Positions 2,182 through 45,592 are shown, counted from the stretch's first letter. The stretch is 47,334 nucleotides of DNA from a virus (IMGVR_UViG_3300043384_000003:1-47334), one strand, 5' to 3'. Made by a program: numbers and translations. Notes: generated from the letters alone by a model not told the origin.

Positions 2182-5100
2182 CAAAGCTGCGTGTATCGGG
2201 GCACACGCTGGCGGAGCAGGAAGTCCTGGCCGAGAAGTTCACGGCCATGGTTACCGATGAGCTGACGCGAGTCCTGGAGATGTTTAAGGCGCTGGTCAAG
2301 TACCAGGGCCTCACAGCTGCGGGCATCCCGACCACGCCGGAGGAAGTGTTCGCACACTGGTCCGCGACGTCCGAAGGGGTCTTGGCGGACTTCACCAGGG
2401 ACGTTTACACGTCCGGGTCAAACGCCATCGCCCAGAAGGTGGCGGCCAGCCACCTAGTGCCCATGGGCTCCGGCGTGCCTGGGCTCCCGGCCAGTTACAG
2501 CGCGTCCTACGTCGCCAAGGCCACAAACAAGATGAAGAACATGGCTCCGGCCATGTGGCAGAACATCCAGTCAGAGCTGGTCATCGGCACGGCCAAGGGC
2601 GAAAGCATCGATAAGCTGGCGGACCGCGTAGCGCACGCGGGCTCCGTCTCCATCTCGCGCGCCGAGCTGACCGCACGAACCGAAGTCGTCGGCGCGAGCA
2701 ACTACGGGTCATATGACCAGGCGTCGCTTCTCGGTGGTGACGAAGGCGTATCGAAGCAGTGGCTAGCCACGGAGGACATGCGGACGCGGCCGGATCACCG
2801 GCTCGCGGATGGACAGATCGTCCCGCTTCACTCCACGTTCAGCGTGGGCGGGTACTCCATGCTTCACCCTGGAGACTTCACGGCTCCGGCCAGCGAGGTA
2901 TGCAACTGCCGGTGCACGATCGTCTACGTATTTGACGACACGATGGCGCCCGCGCTCTGCCCAGGGGGTGGCAGCGATTGCGTCACGGACCCGGACAAGC
3001 TCCCGGCAGCTCCCGCGCCTCCGGCGCTTGCCCCTGGGTCACACGCTCCGGCTGCGCGCGTCCCAGCGGCTCCTGGTCCGACTGCGCTGCCCCCGGCGTT
3101 GTCCCGCGATGAGCTGGTGAAGGTCTACCAGGGCGTACCGGACAGCGTGCTGAATGACGTCTATGACCACGTCCGGACATCGATCGAAGACTATGACGAC
3201 GACCTAGCGACCGCTATAGGCGGGGCATTCAACCTGTTTGAGAAGTCGCCCGGCGCGGCCAAGTTGTTCACGCTCTCTGACTCCGAGATCGGCCAAGTTC
3301 TCAAGATCTACGCCGATAACAGCAGTCTGGACGTCGGATGGCTGGATGACGTCCTGGGCAAGGTGGCGACGCCTGCGCCAGTGCCCGCTGCCTCCGTGGC
3401 GCCCGGCATCATGGACGTTCGCGGGCTCTCCGTCATCTCGCGGCCGGACACCGTGAACCTGGTCGACTCCGGGACCCTGGGCGGCACGCACGGCGCGAAG
3501 CTCCTTACGGACGCAAAGACCGGTGAGAAGTGGGTTTTCAAGCCGTACGCGTCAGCTGATGAGGAGTTCGGCGCCAAGCTGGACGTCTCCATGGCTCGGC
3601 TTCAGTCGCGCGTGGGCCTGCCTCAGCCGTCCACGTACACGGTTCGGTACAACGGGCATTACGGGTCACTCCAGTCCATGCATGACGCAGTGGACGCGTT
3701 CCCGGGTGGCACGTTCGATCCGCTGAAGCTCAGTTCCTCCGATGTCCTGGACATCCAGCAGGAGCAGGTCTTTGACTGGCTGATCTCAAACAACGACGCG
3801 CACTCAGGCAACTTCCTGCGCATGTCCAATGGCCACATCGTGGGCATCGACAAGGGCCAGGCGTACAAGTACCTCAGCCAGGACACCAGCCTTGACTGGA
3901 AGACGTCGCTCCACGCCCCGCTGCCCCCGAACAAGCCGGTTTATAAGACGCTCTGGCAGGCGTACGCCGATGGTAAGAGCGTGCCCTTGGTCGATCCCTC
4001 CAGCGGTCCGCTGAGTGACCTCATCGCTCGCGTGATGGGCGTGTCAGACGATGAGCTGAAGAAGCTGCTCCGGCCGTACGCGGAGGAAGCGCTGAAGGCT
4101 GGAAAGCTCGCTTACGGCGATCTTGACAAGTTCTATGAAGCGGCGCTCAAGCGGAAGAACGACCTGGCCAAGGACTTCCAGGCGATGTACGACCGTGCGA
4201 ACGCGGAGCGTGCAACGCACTTCGCTGCCGGAGTGGGGGTACCTCCCACCCCGGCCACGTTCGTTCCGTCCGCCACAGGCCATCTGACGACGCTGCCCAC
4301 ATCGGTCACATCGTACGTAAAGAGCCAAATCTATAACGGGCTGGACTGGAAGGCGCTGGACAGCGGCAAGGGCGAGGATCTGTGGAAGGCGTTCCAGAGC
4401 GTCAAGGACGTCAACGCGGACGCGGCTGGGCTGACTGACCTCCAGATGGCTCGAATCGTCGATGACGTCAACGGATCTGTTAACGCGGCGCAGGCTGCTG
4501 TCCAGGACTACCTGAACAGTCCGGCCGGCAAGAAGGCTGTGGACGATCTCGCAAAGTCCAAGGTGACGCCGGCTACTCCGCCAGCGGCCGGTGGAACCGC
4601 GACCGTGCCGAGCTTCGGCGCGGATGGCGATATCTCCGGCATCGCTCCGGACGCCAAGCTCAAGATCAAGGGCATCACGCTCTCTGACTCCACGATCACC
4701 AGCCCCAATAAGGCCATCTGGGACACGGTCCTCCACATCCAGAACACGTGGGCCGGAGACACGCTGAACGCTCTCCAGGTGCTCCGCACCATGGATGAGC
4801 AGTTCGCGGCGTACTGGGGTCAGCCCAATGCGCACTGGTACGAAACCAAGATGCTGAAGTGGGCGAAGACCAAGCCCGGCAAGGACTACATCTCCACGGC
4901 GGGGTACACGCCGAAGTGGGGCAGCATCGGCAAGATCAAGAAGCCTTCCAGCTTCGCGCCTCCGGGGACTCCGAAGGCGGCAAAGGTCGCCCTGGGCAAG
5001 CCGACGCCGGAGCTGGACAGCCTGCCAAAGCTGACGTGGAACCTCCAGTCCTCCACGACGTTCGATGAGATCAGCAACTCTGAGGCGCTGACCTTGCAGA

Positions 5101-5594
5101 ACGCATCGGCGCCCTGGACCGCTGCGGAACAGCGTGGTTTGTACGTCTATTCCGATTCGTACTACCTGGACATCAACCCCTGGCTTCGCGGAACGAATCC
5201 GCACATCACGGAGTCGCTGAAGAAGTCGGCGCGAGACGCGCAGAAGGGCATGCGTCCGAGCACGCGGCCCATGACGCTCTGGCGCGGCACCACAGCCAAG
5301 CAGTTCGGACTGGGCGACAACGCGACCGCTGCGGACCTCAAGAAGCTCATCGGCAAGAAGATGCAGGATGAAGGTTTCTTCTCCACGAGCGTTGGTAGCA
5401 GCGCGGCCTTCTCCTATAAGCCTGTATTGATTCAGGTGGAAGCTCCTACGGGCTCGCAGATGGCTTTCATCGACCACATCAGCGCGAACCAGGGCGAAAA
5501 CGAAATGCTGCTAGCAGCAGGCACCAAATATGAAGTTTTGGACGTATACGAAAAGGGACGTCAAACCGTCGTGCGAGTGAGGATCATCCGATGA
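2178..5594 (+). CDS. MuF-like minor head protein fused to a PI3/PI4K/HipA-like kinase domain and a C-terminal ADP-ribosyltransferase
   Basis: MuF: 'ARTEVVGASN', 'KQWLATEDMRTRPDH', 'NCRC'. Kinase: 'LGGTHG', 'WVFKP', 'DWLISNNDAHSGNF', 'IDKG'. ART: 'LWRG', 'FSTS', 'GENEMLL' (R-S-ExE). Confidence 0.85.
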   Translation: MTKLRVSGHTLAEQEVLAEKFTAMVTDELTRVLEMFKALVKYQGLTAAGIPTTPEEVFAHWSATSEGVLADFTRDVYTSGSNAIAQKVAASHLVPMGSGVPGLPASYSASYVAKATNKMKNMAPAMWQNIQSELVIGTAKGESIDKLADRVAHAGSVSISRAELTARTEVVGASNYGSYDQASLLGGDEGVSKQWLATEDMRTRPDHRLADGQIVPLHSTFSVGGYSMLHPGDFTAPASEVCNCRCTIVYVFDDTMAPALCPGGGSDCVTDPDKLPAAPAPPALAPGSHAPAARVPAAPGPTALPPALSRDELVKVYQGVPDSVLNDVYDHVRTSIEDYDDDLATAIGGAFNLFEKSPGAAKLFTLSDSEIGQVLKIYADNSSLDVGWLDDVLGKVATPAPVPAASVAPGIMDVRGLSVISRPDTVNLVDSGTLGGTHGAKLLTDAKTGEKWVFKPYASADEEFGAKLDVSMARLQSRVGLPQPSTYTVRYNGHYGSLQSMHDAVDAFPGGTFDPLKLSSSDVLDIQQEQVFDWLISNNDAHSGNFLRMSNGHIVGIDKGQAYKYLSQDTSLDWKTSLHAPLPPNKPVYKTLWQAYADGKSVPLVDPSSGPLSDLIARVMGVSDDELKKLLRPYAEEALKAGKLAYGDLDKFYEAALKRKNDLAKDFQAMYDRANAERATHFAAGVGVPPTPATFVPSATGHLTTLPTSVTSYVKSQIYNGLDWKALDSGKGEDLWKAFQSVKDVNADAAGLTDLQMARIVDDVNGSVNAAQAAVQDYLNSPAGKKAVDDLAKSKVTPATPPAAGGTATVPSFGADGDISGIAPDAKLKIKGITLSDSTITSPNKAIWDTVLHIQNTWAGDTLNALQVLRTMDEQFAAYWGQPNAHWYETKMLKWAKTKPGKDYISTAGYTPKWGSIGKIKKPSSFAPPGTPKAAKVALGKPTPELDSLPKLTWNLQSSTTFDEISNSEALTLQNASAPWTAAEQRGLYVYSDSYYLDINPWLRGTNPHITESLKKSARDAQKGMRPSTRPMTLWRGTTAKQFGLGDNATAADLKKLIGKKMQDEGFFSTSVGSSAAFSYKPVLIQVEAPTGSQMAFIDHISANQGENEMLLAAGTKYEVLDVYEKGRQTVVRVRIIR

Positions 5595-8098
5595 CACGGC
5601 CAACAGGAAAGCTCACGGCGCTGACTGATGACAGCAACGTTCAGCTTCACGTGATCGAAGACGAGGAGACCGTCAACGCGTACGGGCTCCTTCTCGGCGC
5701 GCGTCCGGGCGGACTGGTCGCGGCCACGCCAGCGCCCGTGACTGCGCCTCCGGCGACGGAAGACGATGAGCCGGACGGAGACGACGACAGCGACTCTGAC
5801 GTCATGGCAGAGAAGTCCGGCGCGATGATCGCGCTGGTGCCGAGCCCGGACGACATCGCGCGGCTGGCCATCCCAGGGGGTGAGGCTCCGGAGGAACTTC
5901 ACCTGACCCTGTTCTATCTGGGCGATGCCGCGCAGTACGACAGCGCGGCGCGTCAGGCGATCGTGGCTGGCGTTACGGAGATCGTGCTGGGACAGCCTGC
6001 CCTCCAGGTGACCGGCTTCGGCGCGGCGCTCTGGAACCCCCTGGGTGCGGAGCCGGCTGTGGTCCTCAACGTGGAGGGCACGGATGGACTCATGTCCGCC
6101 CGGTGGGCTGTGGAGAGCGCGCTCTACGGCGCGACGTGGGACAGCTGCATTCCGGAGCAGCACTCCCCCTGGATTCCGCATGTCTGCCTGGCGTACTCCG
6201 GCGACGTCTCCGCGCTCGCGCAGGCGATTTCACGTGTCGGCCCGATCACCCTGGACCGCGTGCGCGTCGTCTTCGCGGGCGTCGTGGTGGATATCCCGCT
6301 GATCGTCGGTGACCCGGTGGCCATGGCGGGCGAGACTGTCTCGCTGGCGGACGCCGTGGAGGCTCCAGCGGTCTCCGGGGACGGCGGCAGCGACGTCGGG
6401 GGTATCGGTAACACGAACATGCCGCAGACTCCGAACCAGGCCGCTGCGGGACCGACCGGCGCGTTTGAAGGCGTCATGGTCATCGAAGGCATCCCGACCG
6501 GCGATGGCCGCATGTTCGCCCCTGGGTCGCTGGAGTTCGCCCCGACGCCTCAGCCGTTCTCCTGGGCACGGGAGAACTTCGGGGAGCACATGGGTTCCGT
6601 CGTGGTCGGTCGCCTGGACCAGATGTGGCGCGACCCGGCAAACTCGGCGGTCATCCGTGCGCGCGGCACCTTCGATCTCTCCACGGACGAAGGCATGAAG
6701 GCGTACACCAGCGTGGAGAACGGCTTCAACAAGTGGGTAAGTGTCGACGTGGACAGCGTGGGCAACTCTGACGTTGAGCTGATCTTCCCGGAGGGCACAG
6801 ACGAATCTGACATGATGGCAGAGCCGGAGACCGTGATGTTCACGCGCGGTCGCATCCGGGGAGCCACGATGGTGGCCATTTCGGCATTTGAGGAAGCTCA
6901 GATCCACCTGGTCAGCGCGGACGCGGTGCCCATGGCGCCTGAGCCTGCGATGCCGCAGAACGTCCCGATCAACGCTCCGGCAGCCTCCGGCGACGCCGGC
7001 AACGAACTGACGTCGGATGGTGAGTGGCTGTCCAGCCGTCACATGTCCCGGCTGTCTTCGCATCTCACCTGGGACGTGGCGCGCGAGGCGTTCGCCTGGG
7101 CGGACGGTGGGAAGGTGCGCGCGGGCTCCATCAGTCGCCTGGACTGCCGACTCCTCCACCATGAGATCAACGCGGACGGGTCGATCGGGGCGGCCAACCT
7201 GACCGCCTGCGCGGCGGGCGTCGGCGCACTGCTCACCAATACGAACCTGGCCATGAGCCTGTCCGACCGGCGCGCGGCATACGATCACCTTGCCGGACAC
7301 CTGAAGGCAGGAGGGCTGATGCCTCAGACGTTCACCACCAGTGGGCTGGACGCTCCGGTTCAGGCGCTCTACGCGTCCGCCACCGAAGTGCTGGCACCAC
7401 CGGACTACGCGTTTGAAAACCCGAACTTCACCAGCCCGACCCCGATCACGATCACGGCATCGGCGGATGGGGAGTGGCACCTGTTCCAGGGGCACGGAGC
7501 GACCTGGGACGCCTGCCACATCGGCTACCCCGGCGCATGCACCGCTGCGCCCCGCGAAGGCTTCCACGACTTCTACCGGCTGGGTGAGGTCATCACGGCC
7601 AGCGGCGCACGCGTCCCGGTCGGCACGGTCACGATGGCGACCGGCCACGCCCCCACGGTCGGCATCGATCCCCGGCGCGCGGCTGAGCATTACGACAACA
7701 CGGGCTCCATGGTGGCCATCGTCGCCAGCGGCGAGGATGAGTTCGGCATCTGGGTGGCGGGCGTCGTCAAGCCTGGTGTCTCGGCCGGCAAGCTGATGGA
7801 ACTGCGCGCGGCCAAGCTCTCCGGCGACTGGCGGCGCATCGGCGGCATGTTCCGGCTGGTGGCCATGCTCGCGGTCAACGTGCCCGGCTTCCCGGTCCAG
7901 CGGCTCCGTGTCGGTATGCACAATGGTGAGCAGGTCTCACTGGTCGCGGCGGGCCTGATGCCGAGCATGGAAGAACTGCGGGCGCGCGAGAACCAGACGG
8001 CCATCAACACGATGGCTCGGAACCTCGCGGTTCGCGTCGGGCGTGACCCGCAGACGCGTGCGGCGGCGCTCCGGGCGCGGCTTGACGGAAGGGGGTGA
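5591..8098 (+). CDS. Capsid maturation protease with an N-terminal 2H phosphoesterase (2'-5' RNA ligase/Acb1-like) domain
   Basis: 'LHLTLFYLG' and 'WIPHVCLAY' paired His motifs; 'EGIPTGDGRMF', 'VVGRLD', 'VSVDVD' protease-like region; 'WDACHIG…C' C-terminal domain; lies between MuF and capsid. Confidence 0.75.
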   Translation: MTRPTGKLTALTDDSNVQLHVIEDEETVNAYGLLLGARPGGLVAATPAPVTAPPATEDDEPDGDDDSDSDVMAEKSGAMIALVPSPDDIARLAIPGGEAPEELHLTLFYLGDAAQYDSAARQAIVAGVTEIVLGQPALQVTGFGAALWNPLGAEPAVVLNVEGTDGLMSARWAVESALYGATWDSCIPEQHSPWIPHVCLAYSGDVSALAQAISRVGPITLDRVRVVFAGVVVDIPLIVGDPVAMAGETVSLADAVEAPAVSGDGGSDVGGIGNTNMPQTPNQAAAGPTGAFEGVMVIEGIPTGDGRMFAPGSLEFAPTPQPFSWARENFGEHMGSVVVGRLDQMWRDPANSAVIRARGTFDLSTDEGMKAYTSVENGFNKWVSVDVDSVGNSDVELIFPEGTDESDMMAEPETVMFTRGRIRGATMVAISAFEEAQIHLVSADAVPMAPEPAMPQNVPINAPAASGDAGNELTSDGEWLSSRHMSRLSSHLTWDVAREAFAWADGGKVRAGSISRLDCRLLHHEINADGSIGAANLTACAAGVGALLTNTNLAMSLSDRRAAYDHLAGHLKAGGLMPQTFTTSGLDAPVQALYASATEVLAPPDYAFENPNFTSPTPITITASADGEWHLFQGHGATWDACHIGYPGACTAAPREGFHDFYRLGEVITASGARVPVGTVTMATGHAPTVGIDPRRAAEHYDNTGSMVAIVASGEDEFGIWVAGVVKPGVSAGKLMELRAAKLSGDWRRIGGMFRLVAMLAVNVPGFPVQRLRVGMHNGEQVSLVAAGLMPSMEELRARENQTAINTMARNLAVRVGRDPQTRAAALRARLDGRG

Positions 8099-22908: not shown

Positions 22909-22934
22909 GACGATGCCGTAGCATCGTCGCTATG
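22909..22934 (+). promoter_or_regulatory. Putative leaderless promoter of the glycosylation operon, inside a small inverted repeat
   Basis: TAGCAT lies 7 nt before the ATG at 22932; gacgatgc-cgta-gcatcgtc palindrome overlaps it. Confidence 0.45.
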
Positions 22935-23633
22935 GAATGCCTTTACCTTGTGCCTACGCGGGGACGACCTGCGAACGCGGTCCGGCTGGTTGAACGCTTT
23001 AACGCGACGTCAACGGCGGATGCCCGCCTGGTCCTCATTCTGGACGACGATGATCCGGAGCTGGCGAACTACCGCGCGGCCCTGGAGAGCACGGACCTGG
23101 ACGGCCTCCGGTTCAGCTACCGCGTCGGCCCACGGCTTCGCCTGGGGCCGACGCTCAACCGGCACGCTGCGGAGTACGCCGCGCACTTCGATACGGTCGG
23201 CTTCATGGGGGACGATCACGTACCCGAGACGCCCGGCTGGGATCGCATCCTCATCGACGAAACGAAGCGAACGCGCGGCATCTCCTACGGCAACGACCTG
23301 GTACACGGCCCAGGGCTGCCCACGGCCGTGCTGATGCATTCCAGCGTCATCACGGCGCTGGGCTACATGGTCCCTCCGGGACTGATCCACATGTACCTTG
23401 ACAACTTCTGGCGGGACCTGGGGACGCAGCTCAACGCGCTCACGTACCGGCACGACGTGGTGATCCGCCACGTTCACCCGATCGTCCAGGGCGCCCCCTG
23501 GGATGAGGGCTACACGGAGGCGAACGGGCACATGGGACCGGACGGCGAGCGGTACGGCGCTTACGTCGCGGCCGGCAACCTCCAGGAAGACGTGGAGAAC
23601 GTCCGACAGCATCAGGCTGGTTTGACGTCATGA
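22932..23633 (+). CDS. Glycosyltransferase, GT-A fold (GT2-like)
   Basis: 'LVPTRGRP', 'LDDDD', 'FMGDD', 'HMYLDN', 'IRHVHP'. Confidence 0.85.
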   Translation: MECLYLVPTRGRPANAVRLVERFNATSTADARLVLILDDDDPELANYRAALESTDLDGLRFSYRVGPRLRLGPTLNRHAAEYAAHFDTVGFMGDDHVPETPGWDRILIDETKRTRGISYGNDLVHGPGLPTAVLMHSSVITALGYMVPPGLIHMYLDNFWRDLGTQLNALTYRHDVVIRHVHPIVQGAPWDEGYTEANGHMGPDGERYGAYVAAGNLQEDVENVRQHQAGLTS

Positions 23634-24220
23634 CAAGGAGACAGCTCCGGCCCTTCTGGTCGGATGAGCAGCTGGCCGAGATCTACCCGGCCATGTATGA
23701 CCACACGCGATGGGATGACCACAAGGTCCGTGTGGCCACCACCGTGGACATCGTGGCGGAGTGGGCTGCTACCAAAGAGCCTCGCTGGTTCGATGGGATC
23801 GACCTCACGTGTGGAGACGGTGCGATCCTGCGGGCTCTCCAGGCGCGCGGCGTCGTGGAGCGCACGTACTTCGGGGATCTGGTCTTCGCAGACCATCTCG
23901 ACATCATCGGCAAGGTGGAGGACACCTTGCCCGCGTCCATCCACGGTGGCGGCCGGACGTGGGATCTGTACGTCTGCTCCGAGACCCTGGAGCACGTCCC
24001 GGACCCGGACGGACTCCTGCGCAGCGCGCGGTTCCTCGCCTCGCACGCAGTCTTCTCCACGCCGATTGACGAGACGGACGCGCACGCCAACCCAGAGCAT
24101 TACTGGTCATGGAGCGTGGAGGATATCCGCGCCATGCTGGTAGCGGCCGGCTGGACTCCCGAAGTCCACAAGGTGCTCCCTCTGCCCTATTACAACTTCC
24201 AGATTTGGTGCTGCACATGA
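23630..24220 (+). CDS. Class I SAM-dependent methyltransferase
   Basis: 'DLTCGDG' motif I, 'CSETLEHV.DP', 'STP'. Confidence 0.85.
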   Translation: MTRRQLRPFWSDEQLAEIYPAMYDHTRWDDHKVRVATTVDIVAEWAATKEPRWFDGIDLTCGDGAILRALQARGVVERTYFGDLVFADHLDIIGKVEDTLPASIHGGGRTWDLYVCSETLEHVPDPDGLLRSARFLASHAVFSTPIDETDAHANPEHYWSWSVEDIRAMLVAAGWTPEVHKVLPLPYYNFQIWCCT

Positions 24221-24831
24221 CCGAATACCGTTTGTTCGCCGGAGACGTCGCTGAGGTCTCCACGGTCGACTTCCACGCGGACCGCGAGCGCGCTCCGCAC
24301 CTGGAGCAGTCTCCGCACCAGTGGCGCCTGGCCGCGGCATCCAGCTTCGCCTGGGAAGCCCAGGAGCGCCTGGGACATCAGGCCACGGTCTCCGATCTCG
24401 GCTGTGGAGACGGCGGACTCCTCTCGCTGCTCGCGAAGTCCAGCCACTCCTTCGCCAACACGTGGGGCTATGACTTCTGCCCGGCCAACGCGGCGGGCTG
24501 GTCTGAGCGTGGCGTCCGGGCGCTTGCTCTGGACGTCTTCGGGGACGACTGGGACACGGTTCAGCTCGGAAACATCGTCGTGATGACAGAGGTTCTGGAG
24601 CACCTGACCGACCCGCACGGTGTGCTGCGTCGGCTCCGCGCCGCGCGCCTCCACGACGTGGCCCAGTTCTTGGTGTGCTCATCGCCCTGGACCGAGACCG
24701 ACCAGAGCCACTGTGGCGAGCACGCGTGGGCCTGGGACGAGGCGGGCTACGTCAAACTACTGACGGACGCCGGTTGGACGGTTCAGCGTCACGTCAAAGA
24801 CAACATGTTCCAGGTGGTGCTGGCCGGATGA
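24217..24831 (+). CDS. Class I SAM-dependent methyltransferase
   Basis: 'DLGCGDG', 'TEVLEHLTDP', 'SSP'; ATG at 24217 overlaps the previous stop (ATGA). Confidence 0.85.
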   Translation: MTEYRLFAGDVAEVSTVDFHADRERAPHLEQSPHQWRLAAASSFAWEAQERLGHQATVSDLGCGDGGLLSLLAKSSHSFANTWGYDFCPANAAGWSERGVRALALDVFGDDWDTVQLGNIVVMTEVLEHLTDPHGVLRRLRAARLHDVAQFLVCSSPWTETDQSHCGEHAWAWDEAGYVKLLTDAGWTVQRHVKDNMFQVVLAG

Positions 24832-25424
24832 ACATCACGGTAGTGGTTCCGACCATCGCGCCGCGCGTCCTGCTGCTGGCCGAAGCAATGGCCTCCATCG
24901 AAGCGCAGTCACACCGCGCGGCCACTGTGCTGGTCCAGGAAGACACGACGCACGCGGGCGCGCCAGCGACACGGCACGCCGGCTTGATGCGCGTACAGAC
25001 TCCCTGGGTGGCTTTCCTGGACGATGATGACCTGTTCATGGGCCACCATCTCTCCAGGCTGGTGGCGCACGCGGAGGAGACCGGAGCCGATTACGTCTAC
25101 TCCTGGTTTGAGACCTTGCCGCACGGTTATGACCCGTTCCCGGAGACGCACTTCAGCGCCCCCTGGGACGCTGCGGTTCCGCGTCAGACCACCATCACCA
25201 CCATGGTTCGTACCGAGCTGGCCCAGGCGGTAGGTTTCCTAGGCGGTCCGGACCGCGAGACCGGAGACGGCATGGTGGCCGGTGAAGATTGGGCGTTCAC
25301 GCTCGGCTGCAATGCCCTGGGTAAGATCTCGCATCTGCCGGAACGAACGTGGTACTGGCGGCACTGGGGTTACGGCCAGCCTGGAGGGAACGGCAACACA
25401 TCAGGGCGAGGCGACCGCTGGTGA
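24828..25424 (+). CDS. Glycosyltransferase family 2
   Basis: 'VVVPT', 'WVAFLDDDD', 'GEDW'; ATG at 24828 (ATGA overlap). Confidence 0.85.
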   Translation: MNITVVVPTIAPRVLLLAEAMASIEAQSHRAATVLVQEDTTHAGAPATRHAGLMRVQTPWVAFLDDDDLFMGHHLSRLVAHAEETGADYVYSWFETLPHGYDPFPETHFSAPWDAAVPRQTTITTMVRTELAQAVGFLGGPDRETGDGMVAGEDWAFTLGCNALGKISHLPERTWYWRHWGYGQPGGNGNTSGRGDRW

Positions 25425-25446
25425 ACCGACGAATGGAGAAGACGAA

Positions 25447-26529
25447 GTGAAGACCTATGTATACCCGGCCGGCATGGACGGCTGCGGGTACTACCGCCTC
25501 ATCTGGCCTGCTCGCGCGCTCGCGTCCCAGGGGCATGACGTCACGGTGGTGCTCCCGGACGAACGCCTCCACGCACCGCTCCAGCTCAGTGGTCGCCAGG
25601 ATGCCCAGGGCAACCTGGTCCAGATCAATTACCCCATGGACGCTGAGGTCATCGTGATGCAGCGCCCGACGCACCAGAACTTGGTGAGCGCGGTCCGGCT
25701 GCTCCGTGAAGCGGGCGTGACCGTGATCGTGGACATGGACGATGACCTCACCCGCATCCACCCGCGTAACCCTGCCTTCGGGGCGATGCACCCGCGCGCC
25801 ATCGGACCGCACTCATGGGTCAATGCGACGACGGCCTGTCACGGAGCGAGCTTCGTCACGGTGTCCACCCCGGCGCTTCTCCCGGTCTACGCACCGCACG
25901 GCCGGAGCGCGGTGCTTTACAACATGATCCAGGAGATGAACCTGGACCTTCCCCGGGACGTCTCGGATGGATCGTTCGGCTGGACCGGCACGATCCGCAG
26001 CCACCCGGATGACCCGTTCGTGATGGGGTCCTCCGTACAGCGCTTGGTCTCGGAGGGCTACCGCTTCCGGATGGTCGGCAACCCGGTCGACATCGCGGAG
26101 GCGTTGCGCCTCAGAGACGATCAGGTGGCCTGTGACGGAGTGGTGGACTCCACGGCATGGGCTGCGGCGATTTCACGTCTCCACGTCGGTCTGGCGCCTC
26201 TGGCGGACACTTCGTTCAACGCGGCGAAGTCCTGGCTCAAGCCGCTGGAGCTGGCGAGCGTGGGCGTGCCCACGGTGGTGAGTCCGCGCGCTGAGTATCG
26301 GCGGCTCTGGCGTGACCACGGAATCGGAGTGCTCGCGCCAAAGCCGAAGGACTTCTATCGGGAGGTCAAGCGCCTGATGGAGGACGCGACGTGGTACGCC
26401 GAGATGGCGGAGAAGTCGCGCGACGCGGCGCGCGGGCTGACGGTGGAGGGCAACGCGTGGCGCTGGGCGGAAGCCTGGACCACAGCGCGCAAGCTGGATC
26501 TTCAGGCACGCGTGCACGCAGCGGCTTAA
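25447..26529 (+). CDS. Glycosyltransferase, GT-B fold (GT4-like)
   Basis: 'GCGYYR', 'DMDDD', 'VSTP', 'GLAPL…FN..KSWLKPLE', 'GVPTVVS'; GTG start after ggag. Confidence 0.85.
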   Translation: MKTYVYPAGMDGCGYYRLIWPARALASQGHDVTVVLPDERLHAPLQLSGRQDAQGNLVQINYPMDAEVIVMQRPTHQNLVSAVRLLREAGVTVIVDMDDDLTRIHPRNPAFGAMHPRAIGPHSWVNATTACHGASFVTVSTPALLPVYAPHGRSAVLYNMIQEMNLDLPRDVSDGSFGWTGTIRSHPDDPFVMGSSVQRLVSEGYRFRMVGNPVDIAEALRLRDDQVACDGVVDSTAWAAAISRLHVGLAPLADTSFNAAKSWLKPLELASVGVPTVVSPRAEYRRLWRDHGIGVLAPKPKDFYREVKRLMEDATWYAEMAEKSRDAARGLTVEGNAWRWAEAWTTARKLDLQARVHAAA

Positions 26530-30271: not shown

Positions 30272-31192
30272 TCACATCGGCGGCAGATTCAATCGCTGCT
30301 CAATACCCGCTGCGAGTGACCAACGCGGCGTGTAGTGCTCCAGCAGCCTGGAGATGTCCGCCACGCGGTACGCGACGCCGGCCGGTTCGCTGGCGTCGGT
30401 TTCGATCTCCACGTCCTTGAAACCGTCAATCTGGGCGGCCAGGCGTACCAGCTCGGTCATGGACGTGGCGACGCCGGTTCCGAGGTTTACCGCCCCGATG
30501 ACATCGGCGTCCACCAGGGCGAGGGTTGCCCGGCACAGGTCATCCACGTGGATGAAGTCGCGCACCTGCTTTCCGTCACCCCAGATCTTCACGGGCGACT
30601 CACGGCGGCGCACGCGCTCCACCAGCGCGCCGAACGGGAACTCTGTCGACTGGTCAGGGCCATAGCCGGAGAACGGCCGTACGACCGTAACAACGCCTCC
30701 AGCGGCCTGATAGCTGCTGGCCAGGTCTTCGCCCAGCACCTTGGCCACGCCGTACACAGCGTCCGCGTCACGCCCGTCCATGTGCGTCTCCGCCAACCGC
30801 GTGTGCTGGTGCGCGTACTGGAGGCTTCGCGGGTACGCGGCGGAGCTGGAGAGGTACACGATCCGCCCCGGTCGCACGATGTGCGCCCAGCGGAACAGCG
30901 AGGCATCCAGGTGCACGTTTTCCGGGAAGTGCGCGGGCTTGCTATCGATGGCCTTGCGGTTCGGCTCCATCGCGGCAGCGTGGACCACCAGGTCAAACTC
31001 CTCCCGGTGGTCCTTGGTCCCGAGGTACGCGCGCATGTCCCAGGGGTACACGTGGTCATTGTCCAGCTCAGGCGTGCCAAGGAACGCGGGGTCCACACGC
31101 GTCACGGCGTAATCCGCCTGGATCAGGTGGCGGGTCATGTGGCGCCCGATGAAGCCGGCACCACCGGTCACAAGGGCTCGCTTCATCGTCAT
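30272..31192 (-). CDS. NAD-dependent nucleotide-sugar epimerase/dehydratase
   Basis: 'VTGGAGFIG', 'YLSSSAAY', 'YGVAK' (YxxxK), 'IWGDGKQVRDFIHVDD'. Confidence 0.92.
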   Translation of the reverse strand: MTMKRALVTGGAGFIGRHMTRHLIQADYAVTRVDPAFLGTPELDNDHVYPWDMRAYLGTKDHREEFDLVVHAAAMEPNRKAIDSKPAHFPENVHLDASLFRWAHIVRPGRIVYLSSSAAYPRSLQYAHQHTRLAETHMDGRDADAVYGVAKVLGEDLASSYQAAGGVVTVVRPFSGYGPDQSTEFPFGALVERVRRRESPVKIWGDGKQVRDFIHVDDLCRATLALVDADVIGAVNLGTGVATSMTELVRLAAQIDGFKDVEIETDASEPAGVAYRVADISRLLEHYTPRWSLAAGIEQRLNLPPM

Positions 31193-39852: not shown

Positions 39853-40005
39853 ATGGCAAGGCATCGAGACAACCCGGACGCACCGCACACGGTGACCGGA
39901 TCGAACGGCGTTCCGGTGGTCTTCCCGGACCGCAAGACGGCGGAGAAGGTGGCCGCACAGGTCCAGGACGCTCGGATTGACCCAGCGGTCAAGCCGGCCA
40001 AGTAA
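39853..40005 (+). CDS. Small hypothetical protein (50 aa), stand-alone transcription unit
   Basis: Strong RBS aaaggaggt, own promoter and terminator. Confidence 0.75.
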   Translation: MARHRDNPDAPHTVTGSNGVPVVFPDRKTAEKVAAQVQDARIDPAVKPAK

Positions 40006-40043
40006 CGAAGAAGGGCCGATCCTGACGGATCGGCCCTTCTTCG
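40006..40043. terminator. Bidirectional terminator ending the small gene and the ncRNA unit
   Basis: cgaagaagggccgatcc-tgac-ggatcggcccttcttcg perfect inverted repeat. Confidence 0.85.
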
Positions 40044-40148
40044 CGTGAAGGCGGGCGTTTGCACCGCTTACCACGTCCACCCTCCCGGTGGACGACCTCC
40101 ACGACGCTGCGGGGAGCTACCCCGCCGCGCTCGCATGACCGCGCTAGC

Positions 40149-40323
40149 TTCGGCCTACTTGCAGACATTTGCCCCGGTCTGCCATCGGAGTTCTCTGGTA
40201 AGCGTTCGCGCTTCTACCCGGCTGGATTACTCCCGGTCCACCAACGCCGTAGGACGTCTCCCACATGACAATCCACAGGGTTATCCCCATCCTGTGGAGG
40301 AAGGCTCCCGCAAGTAGACCGAA
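40149..40323 (-). ncRNA. Putative multibranch structured RNA of unknown family
   Basis: 14-bp closing stem UUCGGUCUACUUGC/GCAAGUAGGCCGAA (with a G-U pair on the minus strand) enclosing at least three hairpins. Confidence 0.5.
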
Positions 40324-40346
40324 CGTCCGCCCCGCGCTTACTCCCG

Positions 40347-40419
40347 CTCGCAGTGGAGGAATCGAACCCCCGACTTCACGCCGGTCAGGCGTGTCCTCTA
40401 TCCGCTGAGGTACCTGCGA
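40347..40419 (-). tRNA. tRNA-Val(GAC)-like, atypical
   Basis: UCGCAGG-UA-CCUC AGCGGAUA GAGG-A-CACGC CUGACCG GCGUG-AAGUC-GGGGG UUCGAUU CCUCC-ACUGCGA-G. C37/G38, G7·A66 mismatch, no CCA. Confidence 0.65.
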
Positions 40420-40522
40420 TCAACGGCGTATCCAGGCTCCCCTGGGCGCCGAAGCGTGTACTTGCACCACCGTGCTAACGAAGCGTTATGGCGTGTACCC
40501 GGTCAGGTTGTAATCCTGTTCG

Positions 40523-40613
40523 CTCGCACAGCCGGAATCGAACCGACCCGCCCCGCCCCTTTCCGCGCTTCGCTGGCGCGTACTCAGTGCCGGTAGCCCC
40601 TTGCTGTGTGCGA
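40523..40613 (-). ncRNA. tRNA-like RNA (acceptor and T arm intact, D and anticodon regions abnormal)
   Basis: 7-bp acceptor UCGCACA/UGUGCGA; T arm GUCGG UUCGAUU CCGGC; displaced CGCGC-CAGCGAA-GCGCG hairpin. Confidence 0.65.
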
Positions 40614-40622
40614 TCATGCCCA

Positions 40623-40671
40623 GCTCCACGGATGCGAACCCGTTTCACTGTATTTGAGCCTTTGGTGGAGC
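40623..40671 (-). ncRNA. Minimal tRNA-like element (acceptor plus T-like arm)
   Basis: GCUCCA/UGGAGC stem stacked on CGGG UUCGCA UCCG. Confidence 0.35.
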
Positions 40672-40858
40672 GAACCAGGCTCATCCGGCATTCTTGCCTG
40701 GTCCGCCCCGCGCCACCCGTCGTGTACTGCGCGCAGGGTGGCCTCACGCGTCAGTGCCCAGTGATTCGGAGAACCTTGGCCTTACGGCGCAGGGGACTGG
40801 GCAACTCCCTTGCTATGACCGACGTCAGAACGTGAGACCGTGATGACGCCACCATTGC

Positions 40859-40978
40859 GTGTGCCGGTGGGACTCGAACCCACGATGAGCTGACGGAAAA
40901 CCACTCCGCGCTCTACTCTGCCCCATCGGAGTGGTTCCCGAATCCGCAAAGTGCCTATAACCCCTTGGCCACAACACG
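40859..40978 (-). ncRNA. tRNA-like RNA with a long stem replacing the anticodon arm
   Basis: Acceptor GUGUUG/CGGCAC; D arm GCC AAGGGGUUAUA GGC; ~14-bp stem CGGGAACCACUCCG/CGGAGUGGUUUUCCG; T arm GUGGG UUCGAGU CCCAC. Confidence 0.7.
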
Positions 40979-41266
40979 CCGCGACCGGATGAACGGCGGT
41001 CGCCCCCTGAAGACCCGTGTCACCGGTATGCCCGGCAGACATCCAGCGACCGTGCACGGCCCTGGAGCGTTGGGGCTCCCGTACGTATCTGTCTTGCACT
41101 GTCACCAGGTCGCGAACCTCGCCGGACGTTTCGCCGGAGTGACAGTGATCCTCTTTCCAACATCGCAGCGCGGGAAGCGGTCCGATGTCGCGAGGCTTGG
41201 ATTAGCCTGCCACCATGTCCGGTCTGTGGCCCACGCTCAGATATCACGTCACTGAGAAACGTCCCG

Positions 41267-41351
41267 TGGAGACAGGCGGACTTGAACCGCCAACCACGAT
41301 CGACTGAAGGGCGCCCTAGTCGTCGCTGCTCTGCCATTGAGCTACGTCTCC
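41267..41351 (-). ncRNA. tRNA-like RNA with an extended, anticodon-less arm
   Basis: Acceptor GGAGACG/UGUCUCC-A; D arm GCUC AAUGGCA GAGC; arm GCGA-CGACU…AGUCG-A-UCGU; T arm GGCGG UUCAAGU CCGCC. Confidence 0.75.
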
Positions 41352-41354
41352 ATC

Positions 41355-41429
41355 GTGCGAAGCAGAAATCAGAGCGGGCACGGACCTGATCCGAATGAAG
41401 TAACCGAACCCTGCGCACCTGCTTCGCAC
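41355..41429 (-). ncRNA. Y-RNA (Yrl)-like stem lacking the internal tRNA-like domain
   Basis: 11-bp terminal stem GUGCGAAGCAG/CUGCUUCGCAC; GGUGCGCAG…GGUUACUUC…CUGAUUUC pattern, recalled from RNAs beside bacterial Ro60/TROVE genes. Confidence 0.55.
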
Positions 41430-41435
41430 TTGCGA

Positions 41436-41470
41436 GACGCAACGTTAGCGCAACGTTGCGTCATGCGCAA
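41436..41470 (-). promoter_or_regulatory. Promoter of the ncRNA unit, overlapped by a palindrome
   Basis: TTGCGC-17 nt-TAACGT; gacgcaacgtt-5 nt-aacgttgcgtc inverted repeat at 41436-41462. Confidence 0.6.
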
Positions 41471-41473
41471 GTC

Positions 41474-41893
41474 CTAAACTACCGCCCGGTTCACGTACGC
41501 GTCCGCGATCCCTCCGTCCACGTCGGCGGCCTGCGCCAGGGCGAGCGCAGCCGACTTGGACAGGAAGGGCTCACGGCCCGGCTTGCGGACGGTCAGCACT
41601 TCCAGGACCTCAAACGGAGAGGTCAGACGCCGGATGCGGTGGATGATCGTCTCACCCGGGATCACGGTCATGCCCAGGGTGACCAGGACATAGTGATCTC
41701 CGTCGCGGAACAACCGGACTTCGGTGTACCGGCAGGTGGAGCACCGGTCGCCCTTGCGCACGAAGGGCGTAGCGTGGTTGTGCTCCAGGCGCGATGAGTT
41801 GGCCAGACCCAGCAAGGTGCCGGGTACTTCCACGTCGCCATCCGCTGTGGGGATGATGTTGGGACCGCGCTCCACGGTCCGCGTGTTGTCCAT
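41474..41893 (-). CDS. Hypothetical protein (139 aa) with HxH…CxxC
   Basis: RBS gaggag; 'EHNH', 'CSTCR', 'TVIPGE'. Confidence 0.75.
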   Translation of the reverse strand: MDNTRTVERGPNIIPTADGDVEVPGTLLGLANSSRLEHNHATPFVRKGDRCSTCRYTEVRLFRDGDHYVLVTLGMTVIPGETIIHRIRRLTSPFEVLEVLTVRKPGREPFLSKSAALALAQAADVDGGIADAYVNRAVV

Positions 41894-42030: not shown

Positions 42031-44472
42031 GTGACGTACAACGGAGATCGGCTCACAGCTCTGTCCGATGTCGACCCGACCAGCACCGTGGATGCCGCGC
42101 TTGCCTTCTCGGCGGCCGGCATCCCCGTGTTTCCGGTATGGGGAGTGATCCCGGACGGCGCGGGCGGATGGGTCTGCGCCTGCTCCCTGGGCAACTCCTC
42201 CACGGACGACGGCCACAAGCCGGGCAAGCACCCGGCCACGGCCCACGGGCACCTGGACGCCCAGCTGGTCACCCCGGACACGGCACGCAAGCAGTTCGTG
42301 GAGTCCGGAGCCAAGAACCTGGCCGTACCCACGGGTAACGGGCTGGTGGTCTTCGACTTCGACCCGAAGAACGGCGGAGGCGAGGTATACGACGACTGGG
42401 AGAACTGGACCGGAGGGATCAGCCTGCCTCCCACGCTGGTCTGCGAGACCGGTTCGGGCGGACTGCATCTCTGGTACCAGACGCCTGCTGGCGTGAACGT
42501 GGTGTCCCGCACCGCGACGCTCCCAGGGCTTGACGTCCAGTCCGGTGGTCGGTACGTCGTCGCTTCGTCATCACGTCACATCAGCGGCAACATGTACGCC
42601 TGGCGTGACCCTGAGCGCCCGGTCGCCACCATGACCGCCGATCTGATCTCCTGGCTGCTGGCCCGGCGTGGAGGCTTCGGACCGCAGGGCGCCGAGACGC
42701 CCGAAGACTTTGACGTGAAGAAGGGCTTCATCCAGGGGCAGCGGGACGCCTACGCGAACGCGAGAGCGTTTCAGCTCCGCAAGTCCGGTATCTCCCGCGA
42801 GCGTGCCGTGGCGGCGCTGCGCTCGGAGTGGGAGAAGGCGGAGCAGCCCCCGGACGACCCGTTCCCCTGGTCTGTCGTGCTGGAGAAGCTGGACCGCGTG
42901 TGGGGCAGCGTGGAGCCCGATCTCCCCGGGCACACCGCGCAGATGTGGGCGGCCGGCATCGCAGCATCCAGTGCCGGCATCGCCGCTGGACGCGAGCCGC
43001 TGCCCGCCACGCCGGAACAGGCGGATTTCTACGATGGCGACACGCCCCCGCCTGAGCCTCCGCGCGTCTTTCACGGTTTGGTAGTAGACCAGCCCCATCC
43101 GCTGGAGACGATGACCGAAGCCGGCAACAGCCTGCGATACGCCCGACTGTTCCGGGGACATGCCCTGTTCGTCCCGGAGATCAACCGGTGGCTGATGTGG
43201 AACGGGTCGGTATTCGCCCCGGATGTCCTCAATCACACGCTCGCCCTGACCGCGTTCGTGGCCGCTGACATCCGCGATCAGGTCTTGGCCGAGCCCGACG
43301 ACGCCCAGCGGCGGATGGGCGAACAGTGGGCGATGCGCTCGGAGGCGATGGGCGTGCGTACCGCCACGCGGGCCGGTGCGGCACTGCTGCCCGGCATGTC
43401 GGTGAAGGTCGCGGATCTGGACATGGACCCGATGATCTTGGCTGTGGAGAACGGCACTGTAGATCTCCGGTCCGGCAAGCTCCGCGACTCCAGCGCGTCC
43501 GACCTGTGCACCAAGCGCGCAGCTGTCGCCTTCGATCCGGACGCCAACTGCCCGCGCTGGCTGGATCACGTCAAGCTGGTGACCGGAGGCAACCCGGAGC
43601 TGACCGCCTACCTCCAGCGCGCGGCCGGGTACTCCCTGACCGGCCTGGTGGACGAACAGACGTTCTTCTTCCTGTTCGGAGACGGCGCCAACGGGAAGAA
43701 CGTCTTCACGGAGACGCTGCTCCACCTGCTGGGCGACTACGGCGCCATCGCGGCCCCTGGGCTGCTGACCACGGCCGAAGGCCACCCCACGGCTCTGGCG
43801 GACCTGCGCGGAGCGCGCATGGTGATGAGCGATGAGACCAAGGTGGGCGGCGTGTTCAACGACGCGCGGGTCAAGATGCTGACCGGCTCCACCTCGGTCA
43901 AGGCCAGGTACATGGGGAAGGACTTCTTCACGTACGAATCCACCATGAAGCTCTGGGTCCTGGGCAACGCCAAGCCGGTTATCCGCGACACGTCGGCCGG
44001 CATGTGGCGGCGCATGCAGCTGGTCCCGTTCACCCAGACCGTTCCGACCGACAGACGCATCCTGCGCTATGAGGAGCAGCTGCGGGAGGAGTGGCCGGGC
44101 ATCCTGAACTGGGCGCTGGCGGGCCTGGAGGCGTGGCAGGCGGTTGGCTCCCTGGGTGCGCCGACTGCGGTCACGGAGGCTGTGAAGACATACCGCGATG
44201 AGGAAGACAGCTTCGGGCAGTGGATGGCGGACCGCCTGGAGGACTGTCCCGGTGGTGAGCTGCCGGTGCCGCTGGCCTACCAGGATTACGTCACCTGGAT
44301 GGCGTTCCAGGGCTACCTGACGCGCGAGGTTATGAACAATGTTCACTTTGGCCGGGCGATGTCTACGCACGGTTACGACCGTGGCCGTACGAATCTACCG
44401 GCATCGATGGGTACGGACGGCAAGCGGAGCAAGATCCGGTTCTATAAAGGGGCTCGGCTGATCGGTTCGTAG
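42031..44472 (+). CDS. DNA primase/polymerase (Prim-Pol) fused to a D5/P4-type SF3 helicase
   Basis: 'VFP', 'CACS…GKHP', 'VFDFD', 'TGSGGLHLWY', 'GDGANGKN', 'MSDE', 'MWRR'. Confidence 0.92.
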   Translation: MTYNGDRLTALSDVDPTSTVDAALAFSAAGIPVFPVWGVIPDGAGGWVCACSLGNSSTDDGHKPGKHPATAHGHLDAQLVTPDTARKQFVESGAKNLAVPTGNGLVVFDFDPKNGGGEVYDDWENWTGGISLPPTLVCETGSGGLHLWYQTPAGVNVVSRTATLPGLDVQSGGRYVVASSSRHISGNMYAWRDPERPVATMTADLISWLLARRGGFGPQGAETPEDFDVKKGFIQGQRDAYANARAFQLRKSGISRERAVAALRSEWEKAEQPPDDPFPWSVVLEKLDRVWGSVEPDLPGHTAQMWAAGIAASSAGIAAGREPLPATPEQADFYDGDTPPPEPPRVFHGLVVDQPHPLETMTEAGNSLRYARLFRGHALFVPEINRWLMWNGSVFAPDVLNHTLALTAFVAADIRDQVLAEPDDAQRRMGEQWAMRSEAMGVRTATRAGAALLPGMSVKVADLDMDPMILAVENGTVDLRSGKLRDSSASDLCTKRAAVAFDPDANCPRWLDHVKLVTGGNPELTAYLQRAAGYSLTGLVDEQTFFFLFGDGANGKNVFTETLLHLLGDYGAIAAPGLLTTAEGHPTALADLRGARMVMSDETKVGGVFNDARVKMLTGSTSVKARYMGKDFFTYESTMKLWVLGNAKPVIRDTSAGMWRRMQLVPFTQTVPTDRRILRYEEQLREEWPGILNWALAGLEAWQAVGSLGAPTAVTEAVKTYRDEEDSFGQWMADRLEDCPGGELPVPLAYQDYVTWMAFQGYLTREVMNNVHFGRAMSTHGYDRGRTNLPASMGTDGKRSKIRFYKGARLIGS

Positions 44473-44896
44473 CGAGACCGGCAGTAGTGGTCCCACTCTG
44501 GTCGCACTGGTCTCCGAGTAACAGAACGATAACAACCGACCAGTTTAGTAGGGATTTAGCCTACCGGCAGGTAATTGCAGCGGCAAGTAAGTAAGATCAA
44601 CAAGTGAGACAGAGACCAGCAAGGTGAGACTGGCAGCTGACTTAGTGGTCTCCAAGATCAACAGAGTCCTGAACTGCTATTCTATTACTTATTTCTTTAC
44701 TGAGACTAGTAGAGACTAATAAATATAAGAATCATGTGTATACAAGGGCTCTACAATGTGTGTCCGTAATGCCCGTATTTACCCACAGCCTGTGGATAAC
44801 TTTTAGAGAAAAAATAATTCTGTTTCTATATGCCAGGGGATTGGGGAAGTTACTGGTCCACTGGTCCGCTGGTCTCACCTGATTGGAGACTCAGTA
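44473..44896. other. Putative replication origin
   Basis: Only long AT-rich non-coding tract; many GAGAC/TGGTC short repeats in both orientations; perfect DnaA box TGTGGATAA at 44791-44799; directly downstream of the primase-helicase. Confidence 0.7.
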
Positions 44897-45592
44897 ATGG
44901 GGCCGTCTTGGGCGGACTGGGCGGACGCCGCGAACGTCTCGCATCTGCTCGGGCCTGAAATCACGGAAAGTGAAGTCGGGGACTCCGGGATCAGGGTGGC
45001 GGACGATCCGGCGTTTGAGGGTCCGCATCGGCTGATGTGCCCGGCCGACAAGTTCCCGCTGTGCGGCAACGTCGCGGGCAAGGGAACGGATCATCCAGGC
45101 GTGGGACGATGTGCGTACCACGGCGGCAGAAGTTTGAAGGGCAGACGAGAGGCGGTCCTACTGATGGCCCACGCATTGGCTCGGCACCATGCCACCACTC
45201 CGTGGCAGGCGCTCCTGGATGAGGTCCAGCGGTGCGCTGGTGCCGTGGCGTGGCTGGACTGGAAGGTGGGCCAGGCTCCGGACGATGCGTCGCTCCTGTC
45301 GTCCGAACCTGGGGAGGGCTTCGCCCCCTGGGTCGCCATGCGCGAGCGCTACGAAGACCGGTTGGCCAAGGTCGCCAAGATGACCATGGACGCGGGTGTG
45401 GCGTCGGCTTTGGTAGCAAGGGCTGAGGTCTCGGGACAGGCGACCGCGCGGGTTCTGATGAACACCCTTGGCGCCCTGGGTCTGACCGATGACCAGATGG
45501 ATCTTGCCCGCACGGTGATGCGTCGGGAACTCCTTGCCATTGCGGCAGAGGAGGACGCTACAGTGATTGACGGTTTGATCGTCGAGAAGTGA
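44897..45592 (+). CDS. HGG-motif protein, probable terminase small subunit
   Basis: 'C…C…AGKGTDHPGVGRCAYHGG' followed by a helical C-terminus. Confidence 0.55.
   Translation: MGPSWADWADAANVSHLLGPEITESEVGDSGIRVADDPAFEGPHRLMCPADKFPLCGNVAGKGTDHPGVGRCAYHGGRSLKGRREAVLLMAHALARHHATTPWQALLDEVQRCAGAVAWLDWKVGQAPDDASLLSSEPGEGFAPWVAMRERYEDRLAKVAKMTMDAGVASALVARAEVSGQATARVLMNTLGALGLTDDQMDLARTVMRRELLAIAAEEDATVIDGLIVEK

Follow-up and report, generated by a model that had tools for sequence, protein, structure and literature searches.

The stretch of DNA analysed here, referred to as the window, is the viral record IMGVR_UViG_3300043384_000003, a linear sequence of 47,334 nucleotides (nt) that is 62% complete, has a G+C content of about 64% and encodes head and tail genes of the siphovirus type together with one polA and one primase gene. 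The record lacks about 13 kb of the genome (47 kb against about 60 kb in relatives). The host of the phage is likely Streptomyces, because the gene family used as a marker for this locus occurs in four Streptomyces genome records and one RNA module of the locus matches RNAs of the Streptomycetales. Between positions 40044 and 41470, on the minus strand, lies a tract that is real, selected, modular and non-coding, and that consists of short RNA modules, four of them tRNA-like (elements A to D) and one related to short host RNAs linked to Ro60 genes. The relatives used for comparison are locus L044 and sequencing runs X2 to X9, all of which match the tract; X2, X4 and X6 to X9 hold only fragments of it, and X3 provides a 59,980-nt contig that is colinear over the tract. 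The features of the locus are as follows.

41474 to 41893, minus strand: marker gene of 139 amino acids, which adjoins the RNA array without being part of it and was used to find relatives.
41442 to 41470, minus strand: promoter-like site (-35 TTGCGC, 17 nt, -10 TAACGT) with hexamers kept in L044 and an overlapping, operator-like inverted repeat.
41355 to 41429, minus strand: Y-RNA-like short module (the 5' module) with a 12-bp closing helix and a host-type motif, without a tRNA-like domain.
41267 to 41351, minus strand: element A, with the acceptor, D and T arms of a tRNA body but an extended bulged hairpin where the anticodon arm would be.
41097 to 41262, minus strand: optional cassette or cassettes, with a stem-closed unit at 41097-41147 that carries a T-loop-like hairpin; absent in L044.
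41009 to 41096, minus strand: conserved multi-hairpin module, present in X3 and X5.
40860 to 40978, minus strand: element B, with a class II-type D arm, a 69-nt middle without an anticodon loop, a T arm and a 6-bp acceptor.
40615 to 40856, minus strand: a series of modules, each a hairpin or closed by a stem, one of them carrying a T-loop-like hairpin; supported by predicted folds and X5 joints (40687-40830, 40757-40857).
40523 to 40613, minus strand: element C, with a perfect 7-bp acceptor of the tRNA-Asn type (U1-A72, G73), a T arm, a reduced D arm and a displaced anticodon-like stem-loop.
40420 to 40521, minus strand: spacer module of short hairpins, represented by 108 other letters in X3 and skipped in X5.
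40347 to 40419, minus strand: element D, a cloverleaf whose acceptor is of the Asn type with G73 and whose anticodon is GAC (Val), with C37 and a G7.A66 mismatch; called tRNA-Val by ARAGORN.
40258 to 40345, minus strand: replaceable hairpin module, with 98 other letters in its place in X3.
40044 to 40258, minus strand: best-conserved 3' module, about 215 nt, not tRNA-like; present in X5.
40006 to 40043, unstranded: terminator hairpin, a perfect 17-bp inverted repeat, likely bidirectional.

A preliminary description, prepared from the sequence alone, had found no credible open reading frame (ORF) in the tract, and a codon model trained on the window's own genes agrees. All seven ORFs of the tract scored negative (-0.10 to -0.24 bits/nt; G+C content at third codon positions, GC3, 0.55-0.68); the four flanking genes all scored positive (GC3 0.75-0.86). 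The tract is thus without coding signal. At its 3' end the perfect terminator of that description was recovered as the inverted repeat at 40006-40043 (fold z -9.4), in which the scanner found no U-tract. The hairpin likely terminates in both directions, because a plus-strand ORF of 50 codons (39853-40005) converges on it, and a change at 40040 in X3 keeps its pair as G.U. The leftward promoter proposed at 41470-41442 was not listed by the sigma-70 scanner; both hexamers are kept in L044 while the spacer has diverged. A self-match (inverted repeat) at 41428-41472 covers the site. A palindrome at 41436-41462 overlaps the -10 box and L044 has a different palindrome at the matching place, which suggests an operator. 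The claim that the tract is packed with stems did not survive: stems are no more abundant than expected by chance, seven of 11 segments having z-scores between 0 and -1.6, and by thermodynamic z-score the tract cannot be told apart from coding DNA. The segments that stand out are the 5' module (-4.4), the terminator, element A (-2.1) and the spacer between C and D (-2.1).

The four T arms reported on the minus strand all have 5/5 pairs and a UUCRA loop, with G53 at 41287 (A), 40879 (B), 40543 (C) and 40367 (D); the three further 5/5 matches in the 47 kb all lack the RA. As had been described, each is stacked on an acceptor stem (A, 7 bp; B, 6 bp and C1.A72; C, 7 bp; D, 6 bp and G7.A66). All four elements are in normal, non-permuted tRNA order, and none encodes CCA. 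When the tract was searched with Infernal against Rfam and with ARAGORN, only A and D passed the Rfam tRNA model or ARAGORN (RF00005 scores of 47.6 and 45.8 bits, B and C falling below the cut-off) and no other Rfam family reached its cut-off; models of GOLLD, ROOL, tmRNA, skipping-rope and self-cleaving ribozymes had no match in the tract.

None of the four elements passed a strict anticodon-arm test (5-bp stem and 7-nt Y32-U33-NNN-R37 loop in register), D failing only on C37. The statement that at most one of them has a usable anticodon arm holds for A and B, which cannot decode, and needs a caveat for the other two: the geometry of D is canonical (GAC) but with C37, and the loop of C varies. 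In its displaced 5-bp/7-nt stem-loop, position 33 is A in the window, U in X3 and C in X9, and relaxed ARAGORN calls the element tRNA-Arg(GCG). The triplet that ARAGORN calls the anticodon of A differs in L044. Excision of a single insert restored a canonical anticodon arm in no case (0 solutions for A, in the window and in L044, and for B), and no insert-free allele was seen among the few relatives compared. The acceptor ends of C and D (U1-A72, G73) also mark tRNA-Asn genes in other phages, and a search with the C/D end pattern returned 21 loci, mostly true tRNA-Asn genes. Two other readings of these elements were tried and dropped. A match of B to a host tRNA-Leu had been considered as a phage attachment site (attP); an equally good match exists in the tRNA-Lys of a Caulobacter phage, and no integrase was found among the ORFs scanned. 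Nor is there support for reading A to D as Y RNAs in tRNA order that carry the Ro site within the anticodon arm.

The Y-RNA-like stem of the preliminary description is real. A covariance model (R1) built from 16 short host RNAs, with no phage sequence, matched 41357-41427 at 37.4 bits (E 1.2e-6, with rough E-value calibration); nothing else in the window was matched, the next site reaching 14.4 bits, and host copies score 42-88 bits. The 5' module is also the best position weight matrix site in the 47 kb (22.1 bits vs 13.2 for the next). Upstream of the Ro60 gene of one Streptomyces genome its motif occurs twice, in a YrlA-type RNA and in a shorter RNA, and the motif is present in 27 of the 30 TROVE (Ro60) loci examined, a few of the sites being chance matches in coding DNA. 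Among 121 Streptomycetales genomes, which include those that supplied the 16 training RNAs, 59 have TROVE, 54 have an R1 RNA and 52 have both; the RNA stands alone in two (2/62 TROVE-negative genomes). The covariation count on the alignment of host Y-like RNAs was weak. No YrlA (RF02553) match was obtained in the tract at E values up to 10, and the only exact GNCGAAN0-1G motif in the tract is at 40154, the 5' module having a one-mismatch version, like several of the host RNAs. Judged by these matches, the 5' module is a diverged homologue of a Ro60-linked host RNA without a tRNA-like domain, and not YrlA. By analogy with YrlA and YrlB of M. smegmatis, as described in passages of PMC4201824, we infer that it may bind Ro60.

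The host RNA was recorded as an observation in its own right: short and structured, it lies upstream of Ro60 genes (L098:398-476, and sites in 54 of the 121 Streptomycetales genomes), and an Rfam scan of five loci returned no match for it. No TROVE/Ro60 gene was found in the 47-kb record, which extends 5.9 kb beyond the 5' module, nor in five distant family records, four of them complete; R1 likewise matched nothing in these five. The motif of the 5' module is present in three copies upstream of the phage TROVE gene of L028. This phage is unrelated; ahead of its own TROVE gene it carries three Y-like RNAs and two tRNA look-alikes with an expanded anticodon (834-1140 and 2215-2570). In the 38 other family loci searched alongside L028, R1 gave only two weak matches (E 0.06 and 0.2).

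Close relatives show the tract to be a cassette array: strains differ by gain, loss or replacement of modules measuring about 60-180 nt. Individual X3 changes, where cited, are those among the 40 listed, positions near the ends of pieces being left out. Its shared blocks differ from the window at 8/257, 5/57, 9/190, 13/173 and 8/149 nt; the first of these includes the 3' module and has one gap, and the fourth spans 40712-40884, next to an insertion of 99 nt at 40710. The block with the marker gene, 645 nt long, has 79 differences and 16 gaps, and the gene piece of X5 has 65 differences and 6 gaps in 422 nt. In the 60-kb relative, identity is hence 91-97% over the shared RNA blocks and about 85% over the adjacent gene. 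L044 behaves similarly (element A 92%, the module at 41009-41096 93%, the marker gene 84%); it lacks 41100-41262, and its 5' module is replaced by another tRNA-like unit. In X3, four blocks of the window have given way to sequences of nearly equal length (99/98, 106/108, 124/125 and 84/80 nt). The X5 contigs skip 63-176 nt at six places, among them a joint at 40344-40521, which skips element D, and joints at 41095-41266 and 41097-41161 within the optional cassettes, where X3 replaces 41157-41242. The core of D is kept in X3 with five differences. In both X3 and X6, element B has a different 5' part but retains the T arm and the 3' strand.

The preliminary description would have given way to homologues that decay without compensatory changes. 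When the 11 listed X3 changes in element A were placed on the cloverleaf, they gave two compensatory pairs, two pair-keeping changes, four changes in loops or bulges and one apparent break. In an unsupervised test on 34 listed X3 changes, three compensatory positions were found vs 0.28 expected (P 0.011). Two shared changes in the 3' module break one predicted helix.

A 16-nt pattern from element A had nine viral matches, all unrelated; a narrow alignment of the marker found nothing in viral or genome contigs and one short metagenome contig; primase patterns found nothing; and L001 was rejected as a false positive. The tract compared with 401 Streptomycetales genomes gave six weak matches only, five in tRNA genes and one in a coding stretch. 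No cultured relative was found, blastn of the tract returning nothing at E 0.01 and, at E 10, only short pieces, mostly of tRNA. No RNA holder of the tract was listed, a result without bearing on its expression.

The origin of the array is indicated by one distant relative, L003/L061 (43% G+C), in which a homologue of the marker gene is divergent from the primase gene, as in the window, and is followed by 14 ARAGORN tRNA calls and extended-arm look-alikes. Because of this synteny, the tract is placed at the tRNA-cluster site of the clade, from which, by sequence, the decoding tRNAs are largely gone. Across 40 family loci, some of them near-duplicates, canonical tRNAs were found in 11, elements with D arm, T arm and acceptor and no anticodon in 21 (two false by eye) and permuted modules in five; the corresponding controls for anticodon-less elements gave one on the 40 reverse strands and five in 200 shuffled loci. 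One homologous group, of 10 sequences, has an invariant acceptor, and 6/7 of its lower-arm pairs change on both sides. The invariant acceptor, the covarying lower arm and the recurrence across the clade therefore indicate that anticodon-less tRNA bodies are kept under selection there. One alignment (A7), whose rows had been chosen for pairing, was excluded from the evidence.

Two further sets of RNA genes were recorded in these searches. In L064, L066, L070, L081, L082, L084, L089, L090, L092 and L094-L097, which are phage-like contigs, four of them from Streptomyces genomes, the marker gene is preceded at a distance of about 1.6-2 kb by a single tRNA-like gene that lacks an anticodon; its 6-bp acceptor is invariant, and its arm covaries and differs in length. 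Permuted tRNA modules of the YrlA type, often in tandem after a conserved ORF, are present at L059:6530-6780, L069:6770-6850, L077:7660-7900, L087:9630-9880 and L091:9930-10180; in the four of these loci that were scanned no match reached the Rfam YrlA cut-off, and the complete L059 and L077 records are without TROVE.

We tentatively favour, at slightly less than even odds, a tRNA-cluster-derived array of non-decoding RNAs, made as one host-driven transcript, cut by RNase P at the elbows, trimmed, and yielding RNAs that act as decoys. We infer transcription, processing, binding and benefit of the array alike. A host sigma factor would fire the promoter and the array would be transcribed as one RNA, in which RNase P would measure from each elbow; as CCA is not encoded, 3' trimming and the host CCA-adding enzyme would finish the ends. 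The short Y-like RNA could then occupy host Ro60, to which it would bring no tRNA-like effector domain. The tRNA-shaped RNAs could soak up proteins that read the acceptor end or the elbow, i.e. tRNA-directed toxins, defence effectors and repair or surveillance enzymes, while offering no cleavable anticodon, and differences in host defences would drive the swapping of cassettes. A bolder form of this proposal, which we consider possible but doubtful, is an all-RNA counter-defence island in which a captured host-type Y RNA ties up Ro60, the tRNA bodies absorb toxins or immune effectors, and cassettes are exchanged in the manner of protein anti-defence genes.

Several observations weigh against the decoy array. 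One X3 change breaks a pair in the arm of A, unless an unlisted gap compensates, and pair breaks over the whole tract are not depleted (5 vs 6.9 expected, P 0.26). Conservation is seen in one full-length relative, through listed differences, and neutral recombination between the repeats of C and D also fits the cassette turnover. Most segments fold like their shuffles, so that structures are weakly supported outside A, the 5' module and the terminator, and the modules of the window that are neither tRNA-like nor Y-like have no homologue in the fetched loci, L044 excepted. Element D has canonical geometry and the loop of C in X3 reads like that of tRNA-Arg(GCG). Finally, with about 13 kb of the genome missing, a phage Ro60 gene may lie there.

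The alternative that survives best, although we regard it as unlikely, treats the tRNA-like units as processing or stabilising signals, or as domains of one or two large structured RNAs with a role like that of GOLLD or ROOL, the active parts being the modules between them. The best-conserved block is indeed the 3' module, which is not tRNA-like, the T arm and 3' strand of B persist next to a replaced 5' part, and GOLLD and ROOL are placed near tRNAs in prophages in passages of PMC5737381. However, no Rfam match to RNAs of this type was obtained at E values up to 10, the independent loss and swap of modules fits separate genes better than one fold, and both the long arm of A and the Y-like module have conserved features of their own.

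That some elements are still charged or used seems to us quite improbable; under this reading D would serve as a tRNA for Val or for mistranslation, C would, in some strains, be a tRNA for Arg, and B would be a Leu-type aminoacyl donor or a synthetase sink. The ARAGORN calls for D and, under relaxed settings, C point this way, together with U33 of C in X3 and the true tRNAs at the syntenic site of L061. Charging by the Leu, Ser and Ala synthetases is, moreover, independent of the anticodon. Against it, D combines an Asn-type acceptor and G73 with a Val anticodon, C37 and G7.A66, position 33 of C is found in three states, the called anticodon of A is not the same in L044, and neither A nor B regains a canonical arm by any single excision.

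We give little credence to an array of partner RNAs for a phage-encoded Ro60, or another protein, in the missing part of the genome, as in the known phage Ro60-Y RNA loci. The incomplete record leaves room for such a gene, R1 also matches the RNAs upstream of the phage TROVE gene in L028, and phage Ro60-Yrl complexes are known (passages of PMC12135203). Yet the 5.9 kb past the module is without TROVE, whereas YrlA genes published in the relevant passages of PMC4201824 lie within 4 kb of Ro60; none of the five distant family records has TROVE, and L044 lacks the module. A decaying tRNA cluster, in which pseudogenes and captured fragments of host RNA are shuffled by recombination with no current function, would suit the true tRNAs at the L061 site, the frequent X5 deletions, the weak folding signal and the undepleted pair breaks, but is hard to believe given identities above the adjacent gene in two independent relatives, the compensatory pairs in A, the kept promoter hexamers and terminator pairing and the covarying arms in related elements of the clade.

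With respect to the remainder of the genome, the closest polA match is 37.5% identical and, among the matches listed, those of the capsid protein (32-42%) are mostly to actinobacterial phages. No integrase was found among the 43 window ORFs scanned. The MuF head-morphogenesis protein (2178-5594, plus strand) has a C-terminal ADP-ribosyltransferase domain (PF03496, amino acids 974-1125) and the next head protein (5591-8098, plus strand) a 2'-5' RNA ligase-like domain (PF13563, amino acids 101-216). A cluster of glycosyltransferase and methyltransferase genes occupies 22932-26529 (plus strand), and a nucleotide-sugar epimerase is encoded at 30272-31192 (minus strand). After the primase gene, an AT-rich non-coding stretch with repeated GAGACCA-like motifs (44470-44900) is a possible replication origin. 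The 139-residue marker protein has no match in phage records and none in Pfam; its family has 439 representatives with invariant H38, H40, C51 and C54 (a possible zinc site). Its structure model has a mean predicted local distance difference test score (pLDDT) of 92.5, and fold searches gave no clear match, the best structural Z being 5.2, with weak WGR and Pur-alpha hits.

The locus bears on what Ro60-Y RNA complexes do in phage infection, as the record of this likely Streptomyces phage includes a Y-like RNA of host type and, within its 47 kb, no phage Ro60 gene. It also bears on the odd small RNAs of phage tRNA regions, here with few or no working tRNAs. As each cassette is shorter than 220 nt and could be expressed alone in a laboratory strain of Streptomyces, the decoy idea is directly testable. 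Independently of the phage, the analysis yields a short Ro60-linked RNA family in 54 of the 121 Streptomycetales genomes searched.

The earlier statement that no phage system of this kind had been described was too strong, since RNAC and RNAD of phage T4, Lak phage tRNAs with conserved inserts and phage Y RNAs are all in print. A host-type Y RNA without a phage Ro60 in a swappable array of tRNA mimics was not found in the literature searched, which covered few subscription papers and supplements; Weinberg 2017 or later catalogues of phage RNAs could list such motifs. The elements share with canonical tRNA (RF00005) the acceptor and T arm in A to D and the D arm in A, B and D, with A and D above the Rfam cut-off, but the anticodon arm is extended in A, absent in B, displaced in C and at odds with the acceptor in D. 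GOLLD and ROOL are likewise long non-coding phage tracts linked to tRNAs, according to passages of PMC5737381; the present tract has no Rfam match to them and is modular rather than one conserved fold. Lak megaphages have tRNAs with conserved 'enigmatic introns' in the anticodon region (passages of PMC6784885), and the terms 'intron', 'Ro60' and 'TROVE' do not occur in the available main text of Al-Shayeb 2020 (PMC7162821). The Lak genes and those of the window are alike in being oversized for phage tRNAs and in carrying conserved inserts around the anticodon, but in the window, from a phage of about 60 kb, no one-step excision restores the arm and no insert-free allele was seen.

Passages of PMC4201824 report YrlA in 22 phages beside their own Ro60, as well as in Streptomyces, and section 8 of that paper describes YrlA of M. 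smegmatis as cut by RNase P and gaining CCA, and YrlA and YrlB as binding Ro60. In passages of PMC12135203 the Ro60 of phage phiLo and its Y-like RNAs bind host PNPase, and a Ro60-like protein of phage Bas63 counters a defence system according to part of bioRxiv 2024.10.10.617714. The 5' module matches the short RNA that stands beside YrlA upstream of Streptomyces Ro60 and is YrlB-like by position; unlike YrlA, it has no permuted tRNA-like domain, no exact GNCGAAN0-1G motif and no Ro60 gene within 4 kb in the record. The phage Y RNAs described in passages and table rows of PMC4201824 and in passages of PMC12135203 adjoin a phage Ro60, whereas the record holds no Ro60 gene for the 5' module. 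RNAC and RNAD of T4 come from its phage tRNA region and their role is described as unknown in passages of PMC3014915 and PMC9697503. Compared by description, the two loci are alike in encoding small RNAs at a phage tRNA cluster, here identified by synteny with L003/L061. T4 keeps RNAC and RNAD among working tRNAs; the window, by contrast, has lost most of its working tRNAs, and its unusual RNAs make up a dozen or so swappable modules.

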